The position numbers and the translations under genes are program-made. Source: a virus. From it: a DNA stretch of 64,000 nucleotides. Below are positions 287-41,071 of the stretch, one piece after another; position 1 is the stretch's first letter; every line of letters begins with the position of its first letter. The stretch lies in IMG/VR virus record IMGVR_UViG_3300045988_107309; one strand, written 5' to 3'. The notes under the pieces were generated by a model that had not been told where the DNA came from, did not search any database, and was given only the letters and a program-made list of their open reading frames with translations.

Positions 287-318
287 AGAGGTGTTAGAAA
301 TAGCACCTCTTCTTTTTT
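287..318 (+). terminator. rho-independent terminator
   Basis: AGAGGTG (287-293) / CACCTCT (304-310) stem followed by TCTTTTTT. Confidence 0.7.
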
Positions 319-339
319 GGTTATGTGTCTGTGACTGTA

Positions 340-523
340 GTGAGAGGTGTGCCTAAAAGGTGAATATAGGTATTGGTGTCTGTGAGTGAGAAATGCCCGA
401 AAGAGTGTTTAGTGATTTTGTGAGGTTATATAAGAAAACACTAAAAGAGGTGAGTGAGGTTCTGGAAAGACACTGAAATGAAAATATTCCGCATGAGATT
501 TAGTGATGTGAGAAAGAGGTGAG
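340..523 (+). repeat. left cluster of same-orientation GTGAG repeats (iteron-like)
   Basis: GTGAG at 340, 382, 386, 420, 450, 454, 508, 519; region G-rich and C-poor; non-coding. Confidence 0.5.
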
Positions 524-599
524 GGTGGAAGGTTATAATAAAGACATATATAAAGGAATATGCAGGTAGGCAGTACCTATATATCCGCATAAAAATTGG

Positions 600-840
600 T
601 AATGTATATGAGTGTATTATATGTGGTCTTTTAATAGTCCTATGTATATTATATGTATAATCACTGTGAATAAGTAATAATTATTCATTTATTTTATTGT
701 ACTATCCTATACTATATATTGTATATACACATACTATATACACACTATACATACTACATATAGTATATACACAACACATAACACAAGTGATACACAACAC
801 TATACACATGATGTATAAATATAAATCTTTTGAATAAAAA
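600..840. repeat. AT-rich low-complexity core (TATAC/ACACA repeats), nearly G-free on + strand about 700-812
   Basis: runs such as actatatacacactatacatactacatatagtatatacacaacacataacac; CACAACAC occurs twice; no ORF. Confidence 0.5.
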
Positions 841-1061
841 TTTTTGTGATTTCATTCATAACACAAGAAAATTATTGATTAAAACAGTGTGGTTTGAAGA
901 TTGGTGAAGAAAATTTGAGTTTGACAGTCATTTCTACCCAAAATAGAAGTACACCCACCCTTAAATGGTCTGTGGACTGCTGAGACTGCACCAAGTACCT
1001 CACAACTGGAACTCAAAAAGGCAAAGGTAGTGTATAAAATTACCCCTATACCCCTGTATGT

Positions 1062-1124
1062 GTGAGGTGTTGTGAGAAAAGGTGAGAAAGTGAGGTGTAA
1101 AAATTCTGTGAGGTATTTTGTGAG
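1062..1124 (+). repeat. right cluster of same-orientation GTGAG repeats, about 10-bp phasing
   Basis: GTGAG at 1062, 1072, 1082, 1090, 1108, 1120 (spacings 10, 10, 8, 18, 12). Confidence 0.55.
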
Positions 1125-1158
1125 AGTGGAAAAGTGGTCCTTAAAAGCAGGATTGGTC

Positions 1159-1231
1159 GCATTACGTCAATAACAATTATATTATATATTATATAAATAA
1201 TATTAAAGATTTATTGTTACAGATGTAATGC
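1159..1231. repeat. bipartite inverted repeat around an AT-only spacer
   Basis: GCATTAC(1159-1165)-5nt-TAACAAT(1171-1177) ... ATTGTTA(1213-1219)-5nt-GTAATGC(1225-1231); 35-nt A/T-only loop. Confidence 0.55.
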
Positions 1232-1248
1232 CGGACTGAGGACTTGAG

Positions 1249-1276
1249 TTGACTCTTTTAATGACTGTGATATAAT
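1249..1276 (+). promoter_or_regulatory. sigma70-type promoter with extended -10
   Basis: TTGACT (1249-1254), 16-nt spacer ending TGa, TATAAT (1271-1276). Confidence 0.55.
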
Positions 1277-1309
1277 AGAGCCATGCTAAAAAGAAAGCGA
1301 GGAAGAAAC

Positions 1310-1513
1310 ATGAGATTTATTTTAACAGTACTTTTAGTGTTCATGTTGGTCTGTTGGTTGTGTTGTTTAATCTATATGATGGCAAGAGAGAAGAACTTAC
1401 AGACAGCAGTGCTTGACTTGAAACACAAGTGGTTCTATTTAGTCCTGTTCATTGTGTTGACAGTGTTCATTGGTGGAATGTTCTATGTTCTGTATTTTGG
1501 AGGTGTGTTATGA
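1310..1513 (+). CDS. small membrane protein (2 predicted TM helices)
   Basis: ATG 1310 preceded by GAGGAAG RBS; track ORF start 1283 lies only 7 nt after the -10 box; hydrophobic stretches FILTVLLVFMLVCWLCCLIYM and FYLVLFIVLTVFIGGMFYVLYF. Confidence 0.5.
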   Translation: MRFILTVLLVFMLVCWLCCLIYMMAREKNLQTAVLDLKHKWFYLVLFIVLTVFIGGMFYVLYFGGVL

Positions 1514-1851
1514 TACATACTTCTGTTGAAGTGTTAGGCACTGAATATGATGTGCAGGTTGGTAAGCGAAAAGAGTTGCCAATTACAAAAGGGAACATGG
1601 GTGAGTGCAGAGTGTATGGAAAAGAGATTTACTGTGTTCACAATAGAGAGGATAACTGTTCTAAACAGGAGCGTGATGAAAGAACCAGTGAGATTGTGGC
1701 ACATGAAATGTTCCATGCGTTTGCAAATGAAGCCGGACTTGATTTAGATGATGACACTGAGGAAAGAGTTGCTATCTTTTACATGAAAGTGTGGAGGAAG
1801 ATGAACAACGCAATCTTGCAGGTGTTGGACGATAATCAGCTTTTGGAGTAG
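1510..1851 (+). CDS. small HExxH zinc-metallopeptidase-like protein
   Basis: ATG 1510 after GGAGGTG RBS (track ORF 1429 N-terminus overlaps previous gene); motif AHEMFHAF. Confidence 0.5.
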   Translation: MIHTSVEVLGTEYDVQVGKRKELPITKGNMGECRVYGKEIYCVHNREDNCSKQERDERTSEIVAHEMFHAFANEAGLDLDDDTEERVAIFYMKVWRKMNNAILQVLDDNQLLE

Positions 1852-1879
1852 TTGACACAGTTTTAAGCTGTGATATACT
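1852..1879 (+). promoter_or_regulatory. promoter of the tRNA/ncRNA array
   Basis: TTGACA (1852-1857), 16-nt spacer ending TGa, TATACT (1874-1879). Confidence 0.6.
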
Positions 1880-2018
1880 CTGAAATGTCTTCAAGAGAAG
1901 ACAGCTATTCCACCACTGGATAGACAGTCAATCGAAAGGTGGATATTGAAATGAAAATTCTATAAGGGTTAATAGTGCAGGTCATGTGAGTACCCTAACG
2001 AATGAAACCTGCACACAA

Positions 2019-2107
2019 GGAGTGTTACTCAAGTTGGTGAAGAGGAGAGATTGCTAATCTTTTAGTACGTTATATGCGTAGCACAGGTTCGAGTCCTGTA
2101 CACTCCG
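2019..2107 (+). tRNA. tRNA-Ser (anticodon GCU), type II with long variable arm
   Basis: acceptor GGAGTGT/ACACTCC, anticodon arm AGAGA-TTGCTAA-TCTTT, variable arm TACG..CGTA, T arm ACAGG-TTCGAGT-CCTGT. Confidence 0.85.
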
Positions 2108-2109
2108 TT

Positions 2110-2385
2110 TAGTGGTAATGAGACCATACACATTATGCAGTAATGCGTGTACCTACAAAATTCACCCGATAATAACAGGGCGAGGTGATAGTGTCCTTTA
2201 CCACTATTGGTAAGTGAAATGAGTTATACAGCCTATATTCCCATGTGGTAAGACTGTGTAGCAATAGTCAGTGGAAACAAATTCCGTAAGGTTACTGTTC
2301 TTTTGAAACAGTGTAAAAGAGTTCGGTGGACGGAACAGGCAGTCACCAAACCTGCAAGTAGGTGGAAAGCCTACAGACACTTACC
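2110..2385 (+). ncRNA. two helix-closed structured RNA modules of unknown function in the Ser to tRNA-like spacer
   Basis: TAGTGGTAA(2110-2118)/TTACCACTA(2198-2206) closes module 1; GGTAAGTG(2209-2216)/CACTTACC(2378-2385) closes module 2. Internal hairpins include ACTGTT-CTTTTGA-AACAGT and GTAGG-TGGAAAG-CCTAC. Confidence 0.3.
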
Positions 2386-2389
2386 TTAA

Positions 2390-2465
2390 TGAGTAGCTTT
2401 ATTGTGGAAGAAAACATCTGTGTTGCAACAGTGTTGTAAAGGAGGTTCGATACCTCCCTACTCAG
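2390..2465 (+). ncRNA. tRNA-like element with non-canonical anticodon arm (pseudo-tRNA?)
   Basis: perfect 7-bp acceptor TGAGTAG/CTACTCA and T arm GGAGG-TTCGATA-CCTCC. The central arm is a 7-bp bulged stem with a 6-nt loop GTTGCA, so there is no 7-nt anticodon loop. Confidence 0.5.
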
Positions 2466-2492
2466 TTCATAGAGTGCCGGAATGCTCTATGG

Positions 2493-2560
2493 TTAGACAC
2501 TCAGTTGTGCAGAAACCAATGACGTCAAAGGAAGAACAGAAACTACATGAGTGTATCTAA
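2493..2560 (+). ncRNA. helix-closed leader module abutting tRNA-Asn
   Basis: TTAGACACTCA(2493-2503) pairs with TGAGTGT-AT-CTAA(2548-2560); TTGTGCA follows the 5' strand (2505-2511); the module ends exactly at tRNA-Asn position 1. Confidence 0.35.
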
Positions 2561-2633
2561 TGGCTAATAGTTCAGTTGGTAGAACGTCTGACTGTTAATC
2601 AGAAAGTCACAGGTTCGAGTCCTGTTTAGCCAG
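2561..2633 (+). tRNA. tRNA-Asn (anticodon GUU)
   Basis: TGGCTAA/TTAGCCA acceptor (U1-A72 as in E. coli tRNA-Asn), D arm GTTC-AGTTGGTA-GAAC, anticodon loop CTGTTAA, T arm ACAGG-TTCGAGT-CCTGT. Confidence 0.9.
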
Positions 2634-2863
2634 TTTAGTCTTGTCAGCCGACTAAGTGAGGTATTCCAGTTTAAGTACGGAGGACTCACAATAAAAACGC
2701 TGATAGTCACAAACTCATAGTGTGAAAAGGGAAAGGTGCAGATAGCTTGTACGGATATGTACTGATTAACCTGTGAGGAGATAGTTGCCGAAACCACTCT
2801 AAGCTATCCAATGGAGTGTGAACGAAGTATAACAGCCGGACTTTCCTATCATAGTGACTTTAA

Positions 2864-2936
2864 GGGAATGTAACTCAGTTGGCAGAGTAGTAGACTTTTA
2901 ATCTATGAGTCGCACGTTCAAATCGTGTCATTCCCA
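2864..2936 (+). tRNA. tRNA-Lys (anticodon UUU)
   Basis: GGGAATG/CATTCCC acceptor, D arm ACTC-AGTTGGCA-GAGT, anticodon loop CTTTTAA, T arm GCACG-TTCAAAT-CGTGT. Confidence 0.9.
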
Positions 2937-2940
2937 TTTT

Positions 2941-3025
2941 CGGTGAGTGTGTCCAGATGGCGAAGACAAGTGACTGTAAATCACCCACATTAGAAACAAC
3001 GTAGGTTCGACTCCTACCTCACCGA
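2941..3025 (+). tRNA. tRNA-Tyr (anticodon GUA), long variable arm; ends +/-1 nt
   Basis: acceptor CGGTGAG/CTCACCG, anticodon loop CTGTAAA, long variable region, T arm GTAGG-TTCGACT-CCTAC, discriminator A. Confidence 0.8.
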
Positions 3026-3185
3026 CTTCTCTGGTAGTAATGTGCCGGAGAAAACACTCTCACTTTCATGTGTTAGAGATAAGCCAAGTAGGTGTGCTGA
3101 CAGCCCCTCCACTCGACTAACCGCCAGTGGAAACTAAGAAGTACCATTGACGGAAGGTAAATGCGTGAGAAAATGTCAGCTTTAT

Positions 3186-3257
3186 GCTGAGATAGCACAA
3201 TGGTAGTGCGACTGATTTGTAATCAGTAGGTTGTGGGTTCGACTCCCACTCTTAGCT
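3186..3257 (+). tRNA. tRNA-Thr (anticodon UGU)
   Basis: GCTGAGA/TCTTAGC acceptor, D arm GCAC-AATGGTA-GTGC, anticodon arm ACTGA-TTTGTAA-TCAGT, T arm GTGGG-TTCGACT-CCCAC. Confidence 0.9.
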
Positions 3258-3265
3258 TTTATTAT

Positions 3266-3337
3266 TGCCCTTTCGCCAAGCGGTAAGGCACAGGACTTTG
3301 ACTCCTGTATTCATTGGTTCGAGTCCAATAAGGGCAG
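3266..3337 (+). tRNA. tRNA-Gln (anticodon UUG)
   Basis: TGCCCTT/AAGGGCA acceptor (U1-A72), TCGCCAAGCGGTAAGGCAC D region as in E. coli tRNA-Gln, anticodon arm CAGGA-CTTTGAC-TCCTG, T arm ATTGG-TTCGAGT-CCAAT. Confidence 0.9.
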
Positions 3338-3338
3338 T

Positions 3339-3367
3339 TTGACAGCTTTTAGAAAGTGTGATATAGT
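3339..3367 (+). promoter_or_regulatory. internal promoter driving the Y-RNA-like module array
   Basis: TTGACA (3339-3344), 17-nt spacer ending TGa, TATAGT (3362-3367). Confidence 0.6.
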
Positions 3368-3396
3368 GTAAACACGCTGAAAGCAGTGTTAAAGAG

Positions 3397-3528
3397 AATA
3401 AGGAATGTGTAGTAAAAGATTACATCATGTTTAGCTCAATAGGTAGAGCATTATTTTTGGGAAATAAGTGTAGTTGGTTCGATTCCGACAATGTGAAAAA
3501 GAAGTCTTTTACGTTTTTCTTCCTTATT
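3397..3528 (+). ncRNA. Y-RNA-like module 1 (closing helices plus embedded canonical-order tRNA-like domain)
   Basis: P1 AATAAGGAA(3397-3405)/TTCCTTATT(3520-3528); TGTGTA facing GTTTTTC; P2 GTAAAAGAT(3412-3420)/GTCTTTTAC(3504-3512); TTACATCAT motif; upstream of the Ro60 gene. Confidence 0.6.
3425..3497 (+). tRNA. tRNA-Pro(UGG)-like domain inside module 1
   Basis: acceptor TCATGTT/AATGTGA (two G-U pairs), D arm GCTC-AATAGGTA-GAGC, anticodon arm TTATT-TTTGGGA-AATAA, T arm GTTGG-TTCGATT-CCGAC. The 5' acceptor strand overlaps the conserved TTACATCAT. Confidence 0.6.
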
Positions 3529-3542
3529 GATGAAAAGTAAAT

Positions 3543-3669
3543 TAAGTGGTTGTGCAGATAAAGTTTACATCATATTGTCAAGTGGTTAAGACAATTCCCT
3601 GCAACGGAATTAACGTGGGTTCAAATCCCACTATGAAAACAAAAAGACTTTATCGTTTTACTCCACTTA
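3543..3669 (+). ncRNA. Y-RNA-like module 2
   Basis: P1 TAAGTGG(3543-3549)/CCACTTA(3663-3669); TTGTGCA facing GTTTTACT; P2 GATAAAGTT(3557-3565)/GACTTTATC(3646-3654); TTACATCAT motif. Confidence 0.6.
3568..3639 (+). tRNA. tRNA-Cys(GCA)-like domain inside module 2 (acceptor only 5 of 7 paired)
   Basis: anticodon arm ATTCC-CTGCAAC-GGAAT, T arm GTGGG-TTCAAAT-CCCAC, D arm GTC-AAGTGGTTAA-GAC. Acceptor CATCATA/TATGAAA has two terminal mismatches and the discriminator is A, not U. Confidence 0.5.
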
Positions 3670-3684
3670 TGACAAGAATATAAT

Positions 3685-3832
3685 ATTTGGGTTGTGTACA
3701 TTTAGCTTACATCATAAATATCGGTTCGACTCCGATAATTTCCGCATTGGGAATTTGGCGAAATTGGAAAACGCAGAAGTCTTGAAAACTTCCTTATAAA
3801 AGGTTTACAGCTAAATGGCTTTGCTCCTAAAT
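3685..3832 (+). ncRNA. Y-RNA-like module 3 with circularly permuted tRNA-like domain (capped acceptor stem)
   Basis: P1 ATTTGGG(3685-3691)/CCTAAAT(3826-3832); TTGTGTA facing GCTTTGCT; P2 CATTTAGCT(3699-3707)/AGCTAAATG(3809-3817); T arm 3720-3736, acceptor AATTTCC-GCATT-GGGAATT 3737-3755, D arm, anticodon-like arm 3776-3792. Confidence 0.6.
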
Positions 3833-3848
3833 TTAACGAAGAACTAAT

Positions 3849-4001
3849 TGTAGCAGGATTGTGTAGTTATTGTTTACATCATAATTGTAGGTTCGATTCC
3901 TACTTTGTCACCCAAATTTGACAAATCGCCTAAATGGTAGGGCACTTCACTTTTAATGAAGCATAACGATTTCATACAATGGCGATTTTCTTCCTGCTAC
4001 A
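3849..4001 (+). ncRNA. Y-RNA-like module 4 with circularly permuted tRNA-like domain (capped acceptor stem)
   Basis: P1 TGTAGCAGGA(3849-3858)/TCCTGCTACA(3992-4001); TTGTGTA facing GATTTTCT; P2 GTTATTGT(3866-3873)/ACAATGGC(3976-3983); T arm 3887-3903, acceptor TTTGTCA-CCCAAATT-TGACAAA 3904-3925, D arm, anticodon-like arm 3945-3961. Confidence 0.6.
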
Positions 4002-4021
4002 TTTGAATAAGTTAAGTAAAG

Positions 4022-4056
4022 GACTTCACATCTTCCCGAATGTGAGGTCTTTTCTT
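4022..4056 (+). terminator. rho-independent terminator ending the RNA array
   Basis: GACTTCACAT(4022-4031)/ATGTGAGGTC(4040-4049) 10-bp stem, then TTTTCTT. Confidence 0.8.
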
Positions 4057-4089
4057 ATATAAACACATGAAAGAATGGAGGAATTTATT

Positions 4090-5772
4090 ATGGCAACAAT
4101 GAACAACAAACGTGGTAGTGTGAACATGAAACCAGACACCAGAAAGACAGTGAACCATGAGGGAAGTGTGGTACATAAGCTGAATACTCTTGAGACTTTA
4201 TTCAGTAAAGTACTGGGTAGCTTTTTCGGTGAGAAGTCTTTCTACGAGAAAGGGAAGACTGCTGAGAGTGATTTTAAAGAAATTCAAAAGCTGATTGCAG
4301 AAATCCCGGAGGAAGATATTGAGTATGCTCTTAAAGTAGCCAGAATTGGTAGAGAGTATAACATGATTCAGTATCCTTTGGCAGTACTCACAGCTTGTTT
4401 TAATGATGACAGATTCAAGGGTGAGAACTTCCTTGATGAAGAGACTGGTAAGAACAAGTTGCAGACCTACAGTGATTACATTATCCGCAGGGGTAAAGAC
4501 ATTACTGATGTTATGGCTATGCAGATGAATGTGTTTGGGTTTGATGTTGTTACAAAAGGTCGGGGCAAGAATAAGACCTCTCACAGAAATCAGCCACTTC
4601 CTATGCAGTTGAGAAAGGCTTTACAGCATAAGTTGGAGTCCTTTAATGAGTACCAGTTGTCTAAAGCACTGGGAGATAACAGAGAGGTGTCTATGGCTGA
4701 CTGTGTGAAGCTGTTGAGACCGAATCCGTCTAAGTCCAGAGTAGGAAGAGACTTCTTTAAGCAGATTATTGAGGGTACTGTTGTTTTTGGTGGAAGTGAA
4801 GAAGTAAAGCAGGTGCAGAGTGAACTTGCAAAGTCCAACAATAAGAACAGTAAGTCTACAAAGGCTGATGTTAAGAAGTCCATTGATACCTCTACAGTCA
4901 TGGCTATTGTTAAAAACCTTGTTGCACTTGATAAAGCAGGAATGTTTGAGGATAAAGAAGCTGTTGACAGCATTGTGGCTAAACTCACTAACAAGAAAGA
5001 GGTTGAGAAGTCCAGACTGTTACCTTTCCGCTTTTACAGTGCATATATGGAGGTTTCCAATCTGAGTAATTCTGCCGGAAAGAGAAGAGTCTTGGACGCT
5101 TTAGTAGAAGCACTTGACCTGTCTATTGATAACTTGCAGGATATTGAGGGTTACAGTGCTATCCTCATTGACAGAAGTGGAAGTATGAGTCACCCTGTTT
5201 CTGGTGCTTCTAATGTGACAGCAGACATTGTAGCTTGTATGTTAGGTGCTATCTGCTTTAAGAAAGGTATTGCAGACGTATATGTGTTTGCGAATGAGTG
5301 TAGGCAGGTGACTAATATCTCTAAGAAGTCTACAGTCATGGACATTATGAATGAGATTCAGAGACATAATGTTGGAGGTGGAACTTATCTTGATGTTGCA
5401 CTTCATCACTTGAACAGCCAGAGGACAAAGTATGACAATCTGATTGTTTTGTCGGATAATGACTGCTACAGTTCCAGTGGAAGTACTTTCAGACTGAGAG
5501 ACGGGTATGGTTGGGGCAGAGAGTCCTATAGCTGTGACAGTGAGTTGAATAAACTCTTTAACAATAAGGTTATTAAGAAACTTTATATTGATAACCTCTT
5601 AGGTAACAGCTTTGCTATTGCAAACACTGATGACTACAGGAAGAATCTTATCACTGGTTTTTCTGAAAGAGTCATTGATGTTATCAATGTGTACAGTTCT
5701 ATTGGTACAGGTGCGAGTGATGTGAGAAAGGTTATTGACTCCATTGTGGAAACTTTACCTACAAGAAAATAA
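4090..5772 (+). CDS. rsr: Ro60-related protein (TROVE-like helical domain plus vWA domain)
   Basis: GGAGGA RBS 7 nt before ATG 4090 (track start 4075). A roughly 370-aa helical region is followed by a vWA domain with MIDAS residues ILIDRSGSMS, GGGT and LSDND. Size and architecture match Ro60/Rsr, and it lies next to tRNA-like ncRNAs. Confidence 0.75.
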   Translation: MATMNNKRGSVNMKPDTRKTVNHEGSVVHKLNTLETLFSKVLGSFFGEKSFYEKGKTAESDFKEIQKLIAEIPEEDIEYALKVARIGREYNMIQYPLAVLTACFNDDRFKGENFLDEETGKNKLQTYSDYIIRRGKDITDVMAMQMNVFGFDVVTKGRGKNKTSHRNQPLPMQLRKALQHKLESFNEYQLSKALGDNREVSMADCVKLLRPNPSKSRVGRDFFKQIIEGTVVFGGSEEVKQVQSELAKSNNKNSKSTKADVKKSIDTSTVMAIVKNLVALDKAGMFEDKEAVDSIVAKLTNKKEVEKSRLLPFRFYSAYMEVSNLSNSAGKRRVLDALVEALDLSIDNLQDIEGYSAILIDRSGSMSHPVSGASNVTADIVACMLGAICFKKGIADVYVFANECRQVTNISKKSTVMDIMNEIQRHNVGGGTYLDVALHHLNSQRTKYDNLIVLSDNDCYSSSGSTFRLRDGYGWGRESYSCDSELNKLFNNKVIKKLYIDNLLGNSFAIANTDDYRKNLITGFSERVIDVINVYSSIGTGASDVRKVIDSIVETLPTRK

Positions 5773-32785: not shown

Positions 32786-34256
32786 AAAACCAACACAAGG
32801 TATTGATTACACAAGTAGAGACTATGAAGCATACAGAACCCTTTTAATACAGGAGTTACAGAAACGTATGCCGGAGTACACTGATACAAGCCAGACTGAC
32901 GCAGGTATTGTCATTATTGAGTGCCTTGCTAACGGTCTGGATATTTGTAGTTTATACAGTGATGTGATTGCAAATGACTGTTTCTTGCCTACCACACAGG
33001 ATAGAAGAATTGCGGTGTTGTTAGCAAGACAGTTAAGGTATATCGCAAAGAATCAAACAGCCAGTGTTATCCAACAGGTATTTGTTTTAGGTAATGTGAT
33101 GGACAGAGACATTATCATTCCTAAAGGTAGTGTTGTTCACACAGCCGAAAGCACTGATATGGTTATTGTTTATTTTGAGACTACAGATGACCTTATCATT
33201 CCTGCCGGAGAACTTGGTGATGAAAAGACAGAAGACGGTGAGTATAAGTATATGATTACTGTACAGCAAGGAACTTCTGTCAATGAAGACCTTTTAGGTA
33301 CTTCAAACGGTCAACCTTATCAGTCCTTTAAACTGAATTATCAAGAGGTGCTTACAGACTCTATTCAGTTGATGATTGATGAAGGTAATGGATTTGAGTT
33401 GTGGACTCAAGTGAACACCTTTATTGACAGTGATGAAACAAGTAAACACTACACTGTGATAGTGGACGAATTTGATAACTGCTATGTTGAGTTTGGTAGT
33501 GGTGCAAGGGGTAAAATTCCTGCTATCTTTGACAATGGTATTATTGCTTCATATAGAACTGGTGGAGGAACTATTGGTAACGTGAAAGCAAACACTATCA
33601 TTGAACTGTCAGAGAGTGTAGCTTATGTGGAGAAGACTTTTAACCCTTATCCACCTTTAGTACTCGGTCACGAAAAAGAAAGTATTGAGGAGATTAGAGA
33701 AAATGCTCCTGCCGCTTTTAGGACTCAAGACAGAGCAATCACAGCACAGGACTATGCAGACCTTTTAAGAATCAATTTCTATGAGGTGTTGTCTGCTAAA
33801 GGTGTTCCAGATGAAACCACAAAACTGAAAATGAATGTGTTCTATCTTATGAGACAAGATTATGAAATGACGGAGGAACTTCTGGAAAAGATTGCAGTGT
33901 TCTTTGACTCAAGAATTATTCCGGGAACTTCTTATCAGTTTAAAGACCATGAGGAGTACAAAGTTAATCTTACTGCTAACCTTATCATTGATGATGACTA
34001 TGACAAGGCTACTATTACAGACTATGTGGAAGACTATGTGAAGAACACTTTCTTTGCTTATGGAAACATGAAGTTTGACACTAAGTTTGCAAAGTCTGAA
34101 TTGGAGAGTCAAGTGAGAGAAACTTTTGCCGGAGTTGAGTCCTTTAGAATAATCTCCCCGGACAGTGATATAATCTCCCCGGATAGTGAAAGTAAGATTA
34201 TCACTTTAGGAACACTCACATTAAATGTAACAGGTGGTAAAGTGAAGGAGGTGTAG
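32778..34256 (+). CDS. baseplate J-like protein
   Basis: DYTSRDYEAYRTLLIQELQKRMPEYTDTSQTDAGIVIIECLA start typical of the Baseplate_J family; size and position. Confidence 0.7.
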   Translation: MSRKPTQGIDYTSRDYEAYRTLLIQELQKRMPEYTDTSQTDAGIVIIECLANGLDICSLYSDVIANDCFLPTTQDRRIAVLLARQLRYIAKNQTASVIQQVFVLGNVMDRDIIIPKGSVVHTAESTDMVIVYFETTDDLIIPAGELGDEKTEDGEYKYMITVQQGTSVNEDLLGTSNGQPYQSFKLNYQEVLTDSIQLMIDEGNGFELWTQVNTFIDSDETSKHYTVIVDEFDNCYVEFGSGARGKIPAIFDNGIIASYRTGGGTIGNVKANTIIELSESVAYVEKTFNPYPPLVLGHEKESIEEIRENAPAAFRTQDRAITAQDYADLLRINFYEVLSAKGVPDETTKLKMNVFYLMRQDYEMTEELLEKIAVFFDSRIIPGTSYQFKDHEEYKVNLTANLIIDDDYDKATITDYVEDYVKNTFFAYGNMKFDTKFAKSELESQVRETFAGVESFRIISPDSDIISPDSESKIITLGTLTLNVTGGKVKEV

Positions 34257-37477: not shown

Positions 37478-39370
37478 ATGGCAAGTTTTGATAAGTATTC
37501 AAACTACAAAGACAATGCCGGAGTGTCTGGTGTTGTTTTTGGTGCTGAAAAACCTATCCTTGAAGTAGAAATGAATGAGGTGCAGGAAGTTCAGAAGAGT
37601 ATGCTCCGCAAAGCCATTAAGAATCTTATGGGTGATGGTATCACTGACCTCAGTAAGATTGTGTATGAGGGTGGAGCAGTAAAAGTAAAAGAGGGTTGTG
37701 CTTTAGCAGTTGATGGTTACATGATTGAAAGCACTGGACTCTCTCTTACAGCTTCAAGCGGAACTGTTTATCTTCAAGTGTGGGAAGAGACAGCTACTTA
37801 CAGTGACACACTGAAAGAGGAAGGAAATCAGCAGGATAGTGTTACTGTAGCAAACTGGTTTAAAGACAATCGTTCTGACGCAGAGACTTCCAGACGTAAG
37901 GTTGTTAAATACAATCTGGCTTCTTCTACAGACAGTAATAAACATAATCTGGCTATTGCAAGTGTAGCTGATGGTGTTATGACAAGACTGTGTAAGGAGA
38001 TTAGCTTTAGCAGTCTTTCCAGTCAAGTGATTGACCTTAGAGTACAGATGGGTACTTACGGTGAGGGTGTTCTGGGTGTTGAAGTAGACCTTGAGAATAA
38101 CTCTGTTGTAAGAACAGGTGACAATCAGTACTGGTCTCCGGGAGCAGATTATGACAACTCTCCTATCTATGGTGGTAGAAAAAGATGTGTTGTAAAAGAT
38201 GACGGAACGATTGTAGCTTTCTATGGTGAAGAGGGTTACACAGAGACAGGTGCTTTGACTGTAGCAGTAGGAGAAAATGTAGTAGGTACTAAAGTACAGT
38301 GTATGGTTATGCAACCTGCTTTCTACTACAAGAGAATCCCTCTCAAACTTGAGAAACAGGTTGATGACACCTATCAAGTTAAAGGCTATCACATGACTAA
38401 GTGGGTTGACCTTATCAGTCCTGTAAGCAGAGACGGATTTAGTCTTCACCCGGCATTTAAGAAAGGTGACACAGAGATTGCTTACTATCTGATTGGAGAG
38501 AATGATGGCTGTCTTGAGAACTCAAGCGGTTATGATATGAATGACAACACTGTTACTCTTGGTTCTTCTCCTTACAGTGGTATTAAGATGGCTTCTATTG
38601 CAGGTGCTAAACCTGCCAGTGGTGCTTCTGCCGGAAGTACTAAGAACAACAGTCTTACAAGAGACGCAGTAAGAAAAGTGTGTGCAAACAGAGGAACAGG
38701 TTGGCAACAGCTTGACTTCACTATTGCAAGTGCAGAGCAGATGTTATTCGTGGTAGAGTATTCTACTTTTAACATTCAAGCTATCACTACTTTCGGCAGT
38801 GGTGTTACAGATATGCCTTATGTAACTAATGTAAATGACTCCATTCCTAACCCGACTAACACAGCACTGGGTAATGGAAGTGGTAAGATTGAAGTTACTT
38901 ACACACACTCCAATGGAACAGAGTACACAAAGTATGTTCCTGTTTACAGAGGTGTTAAGAATCCTTTCGGTAACATCTGGAAGTTTGTTGATGGTTTCCT
39001 TAGAAAACATTCTGCCGGAACTGATAAGAACGAAGCATTTTGGCAGGACGGAAGTAAAGCCTTTTCTGACGCTATTGCAGACTATATTGCCTGTGGATTT
39101 AGCTGTGCTACAGCAGAGGGTTATGTTAAAGCATTTGGTTATGATGAAAATTGTGACTGGTGCTATATGACCTCTTTAACAGGTGGAGACAGTAGCAAAC
39201 CTGTAGGTGATTACTATTGGGTTAATATGAGTAGTAATAACCTCTATATTGCCCTATTGGGTGCGTATTGGGATAATGGTGCGCAGGCTGGGTTGTTCTA
39301 TTGGACTCTGCATGATGTGGCTTCTTATCGTGATTGTATTATCGGCGGCCGCTTGTGCAGAAAAGCGTAA
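37478..39370 (+). CDS. DGR target (variable) protein, probable receptor-binding tail fibre with C-terminal C-type-lectin-fold variable region
   Basis: the last 40 codons contain the VR, and the matching TR codons are AAT-rich (TLLGTNWNNGTNTELFYWNLNNVASNRNCNISDH). The C-terminal ...IIGGRLCRKA ending is typical of CLec-type DGR targets. Confidence 0.8.
   Translation: MASFDKYSNYKDNAGVSGVVFGAEKPILEVEMNEVQEVQKSMLRKAIKNLMGDGITDLSKIVYEGGAVKVKEGCALAVDGYMIESTGLSLTASSGTVYLQVWEETATYSDTLKEEGNQQDSVTVANWFKDNRSDAETSRRKVVKYNLASSTDSNKHNLAIASVADGVMTRLCKEISFSSLSSQVIDLRVQMGTYGEGVLGVEVDLENNSVVRTGDNQYWSPGADYDNSPIYGGRKRCVVKDDGTIVAFYGEEGYTETGALTVAVGENVVGTKVQCMVMQPAFYYKRIPLKLEKQVDDTYQVKGYHMTKWVDLISPVSRDGFSLHPAFKKGDTEIAYYLIGENDGCLENSSGYDMNDNTVTLGSSPYSGIKMASIAGAKPASGASAGSTKNNSLTRDAVRKVCANRGTGWQQLDFTIASAEQMLFVVEYSTFNIQAITTFGSGVTDMPYVTNVNDSIPNPTNTALGNGSGKIEVTYTHSNGTEYTKYVPVYRGVKNPFGNIWKFVDGFLRKHSAGTDKNEAFWQDGSKAFSDAIADYIACGFSCATAEGYVKAFGYDENCDWCYMTSLTGGDSSKPVGDYYWVNMSSNNLYIALLGAYWDNGAQAGLFYWTLHDVASYRDCIIGGRLCRKA
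39249..39354 (+). repeat. DGR variable repeat (VR)
   Basis: 106-nt gap-free alignment with TR (offset 336 nt); 18 mismatches, 17 at TR adenines. Confidence 0.85.
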
Positions 39371-39407
39371 TCACTAAAAATATTGAAGAAAGGAGAAGCT
39401 ATTCTTC

Positions 39408-39436
39408 TTTACAAAACACTTCATAAAGGTTATAAT
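39408..39436 (+). promoter_or_regulatory. promoter for the TR-RT transcript
   Basis: TTTACA (39408-39413), 17 nt, TATAAT (39431-39436), 38 nt after the target stop codon. Confidence 0.55.
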
Positions 39437-39584
39437 GTAGTCGGTGAATGTAACGAAACACTACACCACCAAAACAGGTAAAGATTTGGGTTATAAGCGG
39501 TCAAGACATTACACAGATATTCTCTTGCCACCAACAGTACACATGGAATACTTGGACACTCAGTAATTTGGGTGTTCCAAGTAT

Positions 39585-39690
39585 TTACCCTATTGGGTAC
39601 GAATTGGAATAATGGTACGAATACTGAGTTGTTCTATTGGAATCTGAATAATGTGGCTTCTAATCGTAATTGTAATATCAGCGACCACTT
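39585..39690 (+). repeat. DGR template repeat (TR)
   Basis: non-coding copy of the VR containing about 31 adenines, 17 of them substituted in the VR; located 230 nt upstream of the RT ATG. Confidence 0.85.
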
Positions 39691-39919
39691 CACGGCACTG
39701 TACTCAGTTTCGGAAGTGTTTACTTTTGAAATAAATTAAAATCCGTGTAACTTCTTTACCTTACCTCTCTAACGTGGGTTAGGTCATTAGTGTTAAATGA
39801 CACAAGTATGATGGTAGAACATATAGTGTTTCACGACAGCAATAAGTCTTGTTGGTAGCTGATGAAAGATTGTACACCTTTATAAGCGTTTGAAGATTAG
39901 ACTTTGGAGTACATGGAAA

Positions 39920-41071
39920 ATGAAGCGTCACCTGTACCCTTTAGACCCTGTGACTGGGAAAGAAGATAGGACGCTTACAATATGGGAGAGAATTTGTTCC
40001 ATAGAAAACTTGAGACTTGCACACAAAAATGCGAGTAAAGGTAAACATTGGTACAAAGAGGTTCGTGACTTTGATAAAGACCCAGAGAAGTACTTGAAAC
40101 AGATACAGGATATGTTAGTGTCAAGGACTTACTCACCACTTCCTTATGAGAGATTCACAAGAAAAGAACGTGGTAAAGAAAGAGTTATCTACAAGTCACG
40201 ATACTTCCCAGAAAGAGTTATACAGTGGGCTGTCTTACAGGTTATATCTCCTATCCTCTTGAGACAACTTATCTATGACACATACTCGGCAATTCCAGAT
40301 AGAGGTATTCATCTGGCATTTAAAAGAGTTAGGAGTGATATACAGAGTGATGTTGAAGGAACGAAGTACTGTTTAAAGATGGACGTTAAGAAATTCTATC
40401 CGTCAATAGACAGAGAAATTCTTCTGAATGATTATCACAGGATATTTAAAGATGAAGGACTACTGTGGTATCTCGATTTAAACATTACAAAGTCTCCCGA
40501 TACTGGTATTCCGATTGGTAACTACTTATCACAATTCAGTGGCAACTTTTATTTATCACCTTTCGACCACTGGATAAAAGAAGTTAAGGGTGTGAAGTAC
40601 TATTACAGATATATGGACGATATTGTTATCCTCCATTCCTCAAAAGAGTACTTGCAAGAACTAAAATGGGAGATTATAAAATACATGAGGGAAGAAAGAC
40701 ACCTTACAATCAAGGACAATTATCAAGTATTCCCTGTAGCAAAAAGAGGAGTAGATTTTGTCGGGTACAGAGTGTTCCCGGATTTTGTGTTATTAAGAGC
40801 GTCTACTGCTAAGAACATGAAGTCAAAGATGGCTAAGATTCTCAGAAAAGTAGAAAGCGGAACAGAAATGTCTTACTCTGATTATTGTTGTATCAATTCT
40901 TATAAAGGTTGGCTGTCATATTGCAATAGTTACAGATTGTACACTAAGTACTTTAAACCTTTAGAGAAACCTGTGGAGGAGTATTACAATAAACACTTAA
41001 AGAATGGAGGAAAGAAAGCCAATGAAAACAATGGAAAATGTTCAGTCAACAGTAAAACCAAAGGAAGTTGA
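39920..41071 (+). CDS. DGR-type reverse transcriptase
   Basis: RT motifs including YRYMDDIVIL (YxDD) and the DGR-typical IGNYLSQFSGNFYL (SQ motif). ATG 39920 is the first ATG; the track ORF starts at TTG 39890. Confidence 0.85.
   Translation: MKRHLYPLDPVTGKEDRTLTIWERICSIENLRLAHKNASKGKHWYKEVRDFDKDPEKYLKQIQDMLVSRTYSPLPYERFTRKERGKERVIYKSRYFPERVIQWAVLQVISPILLRQLIYDTYSAIPDRGIHLAFKRVRSDIQSDVEGTKYCLKMDVKKFYPSIDREILLNDYHRIFKDEGLLWYLDLNITKSPDTGIPIGNYLSQFSGNFYLSPFDHWIKEVKGVKYYYRYMDDIVILHSSKEYLQELKWEIIKYMREERHLTIKDNYQVFPVAKRGVDFVGYRVFPDFVLLRASTAKNMKSKMAKILRKVESGTEMSYSDYCCINSYKGWLSYCNSYRLYTKYFKPLEKPVEEYYNKHLKNGGKKANENNGKCSVNSKTKGS

Follow-up and report, generated by a model that had tools for sequence, protein, structure and literature searches.

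A phage Ro60 gene preceded by an array of Y-RNA-like modules

We analysed a 64,000-nt stretch (the window) of the virus record IMGVR_UViG_3300045988_107309, in which positions 3397–4001 hold four tandem modules (M1–M4) directly upstream of a gene for a phage homologue of the Ro60 protein (4090–5772). An initial annotation had read these modules as Y-RNA-like elements set between a near-consensus promoter and a terminator, and this layout was borne out. The promoter is of the sigma-70/sigma-A type (3339–3367, + strand; TTGACA-17-TATAGT with an upstream TG) and agrees with the consensus at 11 of 12 positions, and folding placed an intrinsic-terminator-like hairpin with a 14-bp stem, an 8-nt loop and a U-rich tail behind M4 (4018–4057, + strand; −19.6 kcal/mol and z = −4.9 for the hairpin at 4018–4053 plus the U tract). 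Compensatory changes were found in the terminator hairpin among relatives, and it was not picked up by a simple terminator scan. The hairpin ends 34 nt before the Ro60 gene. M4 ends 89 nt before the Ro60 start codon, both on the + strand, which is within the distance used for YrlA-type Y RNAs (≤4 kb, same strand); about 20 related loci likewise fall within it. A promoter scan returned no promoter-like site between the array and Ro60.

The open reading frame (ORF) at 4090–5772 (+ strand, 560 aa) does encode a Ro60 with a TROVE ring and a vWA domain, as first proposed: it was recognised by Pfam TROVE (4e-14, 53 bits, cut-off 23) and vWA_Ro60 (1e-10, 42.1 bits, cut-off 27.7) and by PHROG 850 ('RNA-binding protein'). 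Searched against solved structures, a profile of the family matched Ro60 of phage phiLo (2.8e-18), Xenopus Ro60 (4.5e-9), Deinococcus Rsr (4.8e-7) and also human Ro60 (structure-profile matches 9KOP, 1YVP, 9NEN and 2NVO). More than 370 relatives occur in metagenome assemblies, many on contigs of about 80–90 kb, and the protein is at most 26% identical to any deposited GenBank phage protein. The ORF list puts its start at ATG 4075, overlapping the ribosome-binding site GGAGG (4077–4081, + strand); because homologues begin MATMN, its true start is at 4090. None of the large ORFs scanned encoded the RNA-repair partners RtcB, RNA ligase or Pnkp.

A common shell in four divergent modules

The presence of four modules was confirmed, and all follow one order: helix P1 (8–10 bp), a 5′ loop NUGUGYA, helix P2 (9 bp), UUACAUCAU, an enclosed cargo, the second strand of P2 (P2′), a 3′ loop RNUUUNCU and the second strand of P1 (P1′). 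The P1 and P2 strands quoted in the initial annotation pair as it claimed, with sequences unrelated among M1–M4, while the exact extents of the modules proved slightly wider than it implied. On the + strand, M1 occupies 3397–3528 (P1 3397–3405/3520–3528; P2 3412–3420/3504–3512), with its loops at 3406–3411 (TGTGTA) and 3513–3519 (GTTTTTC) and TTACATCAT at 3420–3428. M2 (3542–3670, +) is built from P1 3542–3549/3663–3670 and P2 3557–3565/3646–3654, the loops TTGTGCA (3550–3556) and GTTTTACT (3655–3662), and TTACATCAT at 3565–3573. The corresponding parts of M3 (3685–3832, +) are P1 3685–3691/3826–3832, P2 3699–3707/3809–3817, a 5′ loop at 3692–3698, the 3′ loop GCTTTGCT at 3818–3825 and TTACATCAT at 3707–3715. 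For M4 (3849–4001, +) they are P1 3849–3858/3992–4001, P2 3866–3873/3976–3983, a 5′ loop at 3859–3865, the 3′ loop GATTTTCT at 3984–3991 and TTACATCAT at 3874–3882.

The conserved 5′ strand TGTGYA and the invariant UUACAUCAU likewise held up. Each module has one copy of the combined motif TGTGYA-N8-TTACATCAT (3406, 3551, 3693 and 3860), and the rest of the 64-kb window has none; with up to two mismatches, 0.71 occurrences would be expected by chance and none of 100 shuffles reached four. When each module was folded singly, the minimum free energy (MFE) structure recovered P1, the internal loop, P2 and the tRNA-like arms. An alternative hairpin, exclusive of P2, in which UGUGUA would pair with UACA(U)CA was rejected because the motif variants (UGUGCA, UGUAUA, UUCCAUCAU and UUUCAUCAU) are never compensated.

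Covariation across related loci

Homologous loci were collected as the initial annotation had suggested. About 20 metagenomic phage loci (numbered L001 onwards; the window is W) were fetched, with Ro60 proteins 57–99% identical, and about 15 related loci were used for covariation. For finding such relatives in IMG/VR, a tighter pattern that includes the T arm was useful; a loose scan for TGTGYA-N8-TTACATCAT gave mostly single chance matches among the matches listed. Every fetched relative carries two to five modules on the same strand as Ro60.

Compensatory changes at every P1 and P2 pair across these loci indicate that the covarying helices are a real RNA structure. In an alignment of the shell (P1, P2 and their loops; 35 distinct rows), 94.8% of cells were paired compared with 40%–53% in slid controls, all 17 pairs of P1 and P2 had changed on both sides, and none of 500 shuffles was as good. 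Full-length alignments of modules with permuted cargo (92.6% paired vs 34%–45% slid; 29/42 pairs changed on both sides) and with cargo in normal order (93.7% vs 42%–53%; 27/31 pairs) also outdid all 500 shuffles. The sequences in these alignments are mutually related, and the 3′ strand of P2 was placed by best pairing, with its register fixed by the invariant loops.

The surroundings of the array are conserved to differing degrees. In L001–L005 the promoter keeps its −35 and −10 hexamers around a spacer that varies, and a short 5′ leader hairpin that precedes M1 in the MFE fold of the whole array (3372–3390, +) also occurs in relatives, in two copies in L003–L005. Modules mostly lie directly upstream of Ro60, and in the more distant clades some are also present at the far start of the tRNA cluster; in L154 and L160–L163, some are found at its far upstream end. 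An ordinary-looking tRNA-Glu is inserted between M1 and M2 in L003–L005 (about 3366–3440), and an ordinary-looking tRNA-Asp between M2 and M3 in L005 (3468–3541). The array is thus a mixed one, made up of Y modules and tRNAs alike.

tRNA-like cargo in two topologies

A tRNA-like domain had been described in all modules, in two topologies, and this stood, with M1 and M2 holding a cloverleaf in normal order and M3 and M4 a permuted domain, all with covarying helices. The M1 cargo (3425–3497, +; anticodon arm 3451–3467) was called Pro-UGG by ARAGORN and scored 56.3 bits with the Rfam tRNA model; that of M2 (3568–3640, +; anticodon arm 3594–3610) was called Cys-GCA and scored 54.5 bits, so that both exceed the gathering score of 29 for tRNA (RF00005). 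The M3 cargo consists of a T arm (3720–3736), a closed acceptor hairpin (3737–3755), a D arm (3758–3774) and an anticodon arm with the loop CUUGAAA (3776–3792), and M4 repeats this order with its T arm at 3887–3903, closed acceptor hairpin at 3904–3925, D arm at 3928–3943 and anticodon arm at 3945–3961 (loop CUUUUAA). All four helices of this cargo type covary. The acceptor hairpins of M3 and M4 are 7 bp long, and the loop of the M4 hairpin opens with C-CCA. Such an N-CCA stands directly after the 3′ acceptor strand in 6 of 13 M4 orthologues (W, L001, L004, L127, L129 and L131); CCA is not encoded in the ordinary tRNA genes of the window phage.

A closed anticodon arm (5-bp stem, 7-nt loop) is present in all of M1–M4, and its stem covaries at 5/5 pairs in both full-length alignments. 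Some relatives have a cargo with an 8-nt or 6-nt anticodon loop, or a decayed one. In relatives with Ro60 62%–65% identical, a third order was found (anticodon-like hairpin, T arm, acceptor hairpin, D arm), which matches that of canonical YrlA, 'V' hairpin included, and some shells of relatives enclose just 22–49 nt of cargo. What stays constant is thus the shell, and the cargo inside it can be exchanged.

The 23 distinct normal-order cargos share a 5′ acceptor strand (C)AUCAU whatever their anticodon (Pro, Cys, Gly, Asn, Asp, Val, Ile or Tyr), most have a C1-A72 mismatch, and 20 of them carry discriminator A. The M2 acceptor stem in the window has two mismatches (1-72 and 2-71); that of M1 is fully paired over 7 bp with U1-A72. 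By the established rules of tRNA identity, the acceptor stems and discriminators of normal-order cargos are inconsistent with the amino-acid identity that their anticodons imply, and M1 and M2 are probably not ordinary tRNAs.

Anticodons are constant in M1 (UGG) and M3 (UGA) and variable in M2 and M4. M2 carries GCA in the window; its counterpart in a phage with a 98%-identical Ro60 carries UCC, with one other difference in the module, and a 24-nt arm of M4 is invariant in eight loci of the window clade save for anticodon positions 34 and 35 (UUU, GUU or GCU). Differences between the two closest pairs of loci were enriched in the anticodon triplet (W/L001, 2/8 differences, P = 0.01; L002/L127, 5/30 differences, P = 1.6e-4); the enrichment was absent from other pairs, and the tests are mutually non-independent. 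This pattern of variation is suggestive, not proof.

Resemblance to YrlA and other Y RNAs

We compared the modules with Rfam models and with published Y RNAs. The Rfam check proposed in the initial annotation touched one module: the YrlA model (RF02553, gathering score 69) aligned to M4 below threshold, at 24.6 bits over 3863–3973 (E = 0.0037 in a 341-nt search), and the aligned part takes in the T arm, acceptor hairpin and D arm. No match to Y_RNA or another Y-family model was returned in 300–4100 at E ≤ 10. YrlA RNAs resemble the modules in lying near Ro60 (within a few hundred nt) on its strand, often more than one per locus, and in having 5′ and 3′ ends that pair into a stem with conserved unpaired nucleotides, a stem in which 17/17 pairs are compensated here. 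A further likeness is confined to M3 and M4, in which the T arm is followed by a closed acceptor hairpin and then a D arm, as in YrlA, the T and D arms being near-canonical.

YrlA has no anticodon loop, and its anticodon stem continues into the Ro-binding stem (PMC4201824; structure in bioRxiv 10.1101/312249). In M1–M4, in contrast, the anticodon arm is complete (5 bp/7 nt); that of M3 and M4 follows the D arm, whereas the V hairpin of YrlA precedes the T arm, and M1 and M2 are wholly unpermuted.

Both orientations of the tRNA-like part have been published, as YrlA and Yrn1 (PMC4201824), and published species have one tRNA-like and one simple hairpin Y RNA (PMC4201824). In Deinococcus radiodurans, Yrn2, tRNA(Asp) and Yrn1 form one precursor upstream of rsr (PMC4201824). 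Like M1 and M2, Yrn1 holds its tRNA-like part in the order D, anticodon, T inside the Ro-binding stem; unlike them, it shows D features only in part, and it has an 'anticodon' loop of 6 nt and a Ro-binding helix of the metazoan-like kind. M1 and M2 form complete cloverleaves accepted by tRNA models, and their shell sequences are different. Thermus phage phiLo offers a further parallel, its Ro60 having been shown experimentally to bind the upstream Yrl1/Yrl2 and to form a RYPER-like complex with host PNPase (PMC12135203). There, too, Y-like RNAs lie directly upstream of a phage Ro60, which is the closest solved-structure relative of the window protein (the 2.8e-18 match spans only part of the window protein sequence); unlike in the window, the RNAs are defined by CGAA motifs in stem-bulge-stem folds, with no tRNA-like cargo reported. 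The claim that the arrangement matched nothing described was therefore overstated, several Y RNAs upstream of Ro60 having been published (PMC4201824, PMC12135203). Tandem Y-RNA arrays beside Ro60, their mixing with tRNAs and both tRNA-like orientations are already known. What is new is a divergent Ro motif missed by current models, anticodon arms that are complete, one conserved shell in which a tRNA mimic comes in at least three circular arrangements and which also forms cargo-poor units, and a shell consensus common to distant phage Ro60 loci.

In permuted tRNA genes of the Cyanidioschyzon merolae type, the splicing machinery closes a circle at a bulge-helix-bulge (BHB) motif, and the products are ordinary tRNAs. 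As in those genes, the 3′ half (T arm, 3′ acceptor strand) of M3 and M4 stands ahead of the 5′ half (5′ acceptor strand, D arm, anticodon arm); here, by contrast, the halves are joined by the Y shell at the position of the variable arm, and neither a BHB motif nor a gene for a ligase was seen.

Shells beside distant Ro60 genes

Xanthomonas phage Tabio (LR743528) encodes a Ro60 about 25% identical to that of the window. Upstream of this gene lie two RNAs that served as a positive control for the Rfam YrlA model, with scores of 52.1 and 37.3 bits (E = 8.5e-11 and 1.6e-6), below the gathering score. Their shell (GCUGG / UGGUG(A/U)A / 8-bp P2 / UUACUUC ... UUCC / CCAGC) has the same architecture as that of the window and nearly the same loop motifs (UUGUGYA, UUACAUCAU and UUUNCU in the window). 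Upstream of Ro60, at 2340–2950, Tabio has three to four UGGUGNA-N8-UUACUUC motifs (2354, 2516, 2588 and 2820, that at 2588 being uncertain), and the unit at 2516 is cargo-poor (23 nt). In the Rfam alignment of the Tabio RNAs, the outermost helix of the model is P2, and CgaAUGC of the GNCGAA region falls on the end of P2 plus UUAC, so that UUACAUCAU sits at the position of the presumed Ro60 contact of YrlA; the window has, for example, AGAUUACAUC there. P1 and the UGUGYA loop fall outside the model. Equating UUAC with the 'YUAY' of YrlA was considered and dropped, as the same alignment puts UUAC on AUGC of the GNCGAAUGC region.

In the crAss-like phage csAssE-Sib (OR575929), genes annotated as tRNA-Tyr (2595–2735) and tRNA-Lys (2742–2872) lie directly upstream of a 'Ro sixty-related protein'. 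Folding and inspection by eye gave a shell of the form P1 / UGGUGAK / 9-bp P2 / UUACUUCGAA ... NGCUUUUCC / P1′, which clearly encloses the second cloverleaf and, by manual pairing, the first. As in M1 and M2, a normal-order cloverleaf stands inside a shell; unlike in the window, the units are annotated merely as tRNAs, Ro60 is 24% identical, and the motifs are the variants UGGUG and UUACUUC. The two genes are probably Y-RNA cargos, not plain tRNAs, and these shells therefore extend the design of a tRNA inside a Y shell beyond the window lineage.

Two further phages were inspected. Bacteroides phage PhiCrAssBcn24 (OQ221559) has several G(G/U)GUA-N8-UUAC(A/U)UC motifs at 3930–4650, in an 880-nt unannotated gap downstream of its TROVE gene, among them one GUGUA-N8-UUACAUCAA that is nearly the window motif; T-arm-like hairpins are also present, and an automatic helix parse was unconvincing. 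For Listeria phage CKA15, highly transcribed unannotated regions upstream of an Rsr-like gene have been reported (PMC12282133). In the related phage P100 (DQ004855), no Y-type shell was found at 33200–33500 (minus strand), upstream of the Rsr-like gp165. A TTGACA...TATCAT promoter is followed in P100 by three repeats of about CTAACAGCAATTACTA, which may be the counterpart of the regions transcribed in CKA15.

A putative Y-RNA array and the alternatives to it

Taken together, the covarying helices, the synteny with a genuine Ro60 homologue, the likeness to the Tabio shell and the modular cargo make it likely that four divergent Y RNAs of the YrlA type, putative partners of the phage's own Ro60, are encoded here as one polycistronic array. 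Varied cargo in one shell corresponds to the two-module plan of Y RNAs. Transcription would start from the promoter at 3339–3367 and mostly end at the hairpin at 4018–4057, with Ro60 mRNA arising by read-through, and the precursor would be cut in the A/U-rich spacers of 12–17 nt into units of about 130–155 nt. Each unit would combine a conserved docking shell (P1, the U/G-rich asymmetric internal loop of UUGUGYA opposite RNUUUNCU, the 9-bp P2 and single-stranded UUACAUCAU) with a variable effector cargo, the tRNA mimic. The shell may dock on Ro60, and the tRNA-shaped cargo may tether Ro60 to, or compete for, tRNA-recognising host factors, for which RNase P, the CCA-adding enzyme, modification enzymes, PNPase and anticodon nucleases are candidates. 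YrlA of Mycobacterium smegmatis is cleaved by RNase P and has CCA added to it (PMC4201824), and by analogy RNase P is likely to act on the closed 7-bp acceptor hairpins of M3 and M4. A polycistronic Y-RNA precursor is suggested by the Deinococcus polycistron, the processing of M. smegmatis YrlA and the binding of Y-like RNAs by phiLo Ro60.

Several observations weigh against this interpretation. Structure, synteny and shell likeness all fit the initial proposal of YrlA-kind modules that partner Ro60; Rfam scores and the canonical motif do not. The YrlA model gave no match for M1–M3 and no module reached its gathering score, and the motif GNCGAAN0-1G described by Chen et al. (2014; PMC4201824), the presumed Ro60 contact of YrlA, is absent from the 5′ parts of M1–M4. 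The sole GNCGAA string, GGCGAA in the D arm of M3, was taken to be a coincidence, being in the wrong place and without the trailing G. All related loci belong to one phage lineage, and the synteny is therefore not independent co-occurrence; when relatives lacking Ro60 were sought through the neighbouring DUF932 gene, the four loci returned all had Ro60. A 3-bp helix P3 (AUC/GAU) proposed by the MFE fold between UUACAUC and the 3′ linker of M3 and M4 was unsupported (73% paired, zero covariation). Finally, M1 and M2 pass the tRNA gathering score, and the fully paired acceptor stem of M1 together with its strictly conserved Pro-type anticodon loop makes a dual tRNA role possible.

One alternative is that M1 and M2 are genuine tRNA genes of the phage, as M3 and M4 might also be once cleaved, with the shell a leader–trailer stem for processing or stabilisation like those around rRNAs and the nearness of Ro60 either incidental or a matter of precursor quality control only; this nevertheless appears quite unlikely. 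Besides the Rfam scores (56.3 and 54.5 bits) and ARAGORN calls, such a view would explain why U33 and a purine at 37 persist in the anticodon loops, why the M1 loop UUUGGGA is conserved, and why the modules adjoin ordinary tRNAs and are interleaved with them in relatives; the window also has no other tRNA-Pro or tRNA-Cys. However, the acceptor stems of M3 and M4 are closed, some shells hold little or no tRNA, and a shell of this kind is absent from the ordinary tRNAs in the cluster. Nor would decoding genes be expected to keep one 5′ acceptor strand across eight anticodons, with C1-A72 or worse mismatches common, to carry discriminator A even with Cys and Gly anticodons, to change the M2 anticodon from GCA to UCC in a nearly unchanged body, or to have anticodon loops of other than 7 nt in some relatives.

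The complete anticodon arms in all four modules, the invariance of the M4 arm outside positions 34 and 35 in the eight loci and the enrichment of anticodon differences (P = 0.01 for W/L001 and 1.6e-4 for L002/L127) would also fit decoys, in the form of tRNAs or anticodon stem-loops, that act independently of Ro60 against host anticodon nucleases or other tRNA-targeting defences, the shell giving protection from exonucleases. Hughes et al. have indeed proposed that YrlA's tRNA-like domain may inhibit an anticodon nuclease by competing with tRNAs (PMC7790460), which such decoys would match. Conservation of the shell loops goes far beyond the need of exonuclease protection, however, the shell is common to YrlA-type RNAs beside distant Ro60 genes, cargo-less shells occur, and the anticodon enrichment is missing in other pairs of loci, with tests that are non-independent. 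A decoy function is moreover compatible with Ro60 binding and not exclusive of it, and we regard its Ro60-independent form as improbable. Least of all do the data favour a cis-acting leader or attenuator that would govern terminator read-through into Ro60 in place of trans-acting RNAs. The strong terminator between array and Ro60, with no separate promoter-like site there, would suit it; set against this, each module is closed on itself by P1, module number varies from 2 to 5, in relatives some modules stand at the tRNA cluster's far end, about 2.4 kb upstream, the MFE fold gave no alternative pairing with the terminator, and the sole alternative hairpin considered is uncompensated in variants, which leaves this reading highly improbable.

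Returning to the Y-RNA array, a further-reaching proposal, which we consider rather unlikely, is that the shell is a general phage Ro60-docking cassette carrying swapped and permuted tRNA-derived cargos, whose anticodon stem-loops would be the business end, as decoys, sensors or substrates against host tRNA-targeting defences. The triplet would then have been retargeted between near-identical phages (GCA to UCC in M2; UUU to GUU to GCU in the otherwise invariant arm of M4), and some 'tRNA genes' beside phage Ro60, for example in crAss-like phages, would be Y-RNA cargos and not decoders. More generally, a large Y-RNA lineage (Ro60 in more than 370 metagenomic protein clusters) is sub-threshold for Rfam YrlA, half of these RNAs being called as tRNAs by tRNA finders, and tRNA counts of Ro60-encoding phages may be inflated by Y-RNA cargos. 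The shell consensus P1 / UKGUGNA / P2 / UUACWUC ... UUUNCY / P1′ was found beside very distant Ro60 genes (Xanthomonas phages, crAss-like phages and the window lineage); it is a candidate Ro60-binding site and may serve as a better search model. One shell with an unpermuted tRNA, two circular permutations or almost nothing inside may represent natural intermediates in a proposed origin of Y RNAs from tRNA transcripts, and anticodon arms that vary in the triplet alone make the idea of Y RNAs as tRNA-mimic nuclease decoys directly testable.

Other features of the phage genome

The window covers most of an approximately 86-kb genome of an uncultivated, myovirus-like phage, with genes for a portal, major head protein, tail sheath, tape measure, baseplate, LysM endolysin, DnaB, primase, PolA and UvsX. 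A megablast search with the locus as query returned no close relative among GenBank phages. Upstream of the array, a promoter and six ordinary tRNA genes occupy 1852–3338 (ARAGORN, Rfam and promoter scan), with long non-coding spacers at 2108–2560 (453 nt), 2634–2863 (230 nt) and 3027–3185 (159 nt) that have stable predicted folds. The 453-nt spacer, between tRNA-Ser and tRNA-Asn, contains an extra tRNA-like element (2391–2464, +) with an acceptor-like stem GAGTAG/CTACTC, a canonical T arm (GGAGGTTCGATACCTCC), an 8-bp 'anticodon' stem and the 6-nt loop UUGCAA. It was called by neither ARAGORN nor Rfam; in L001, L002 and L127 it is kept, and its T stem shows a compensatory change; L129 and L132 have an ARAGORN 'tRNA-???' at a similar place. 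A/T-rich degenerate short repeats (tatacacata / tatatac variants) lie at 600–830, upstream of early small ORFs. Further downstream, the window carries a diversity-generating retroelement (37478–41071, +), in which the variable repeat (39249–39354) lies at the 3′ end of a tail protein gene (37478–39370), the template repeat lies at 39585–39690, and the reverse transcriptase is encoded at 39890–41071 (PHROG 1423, 6e-117); 17 of the 18 mismatches between the repeats are at template adenines.

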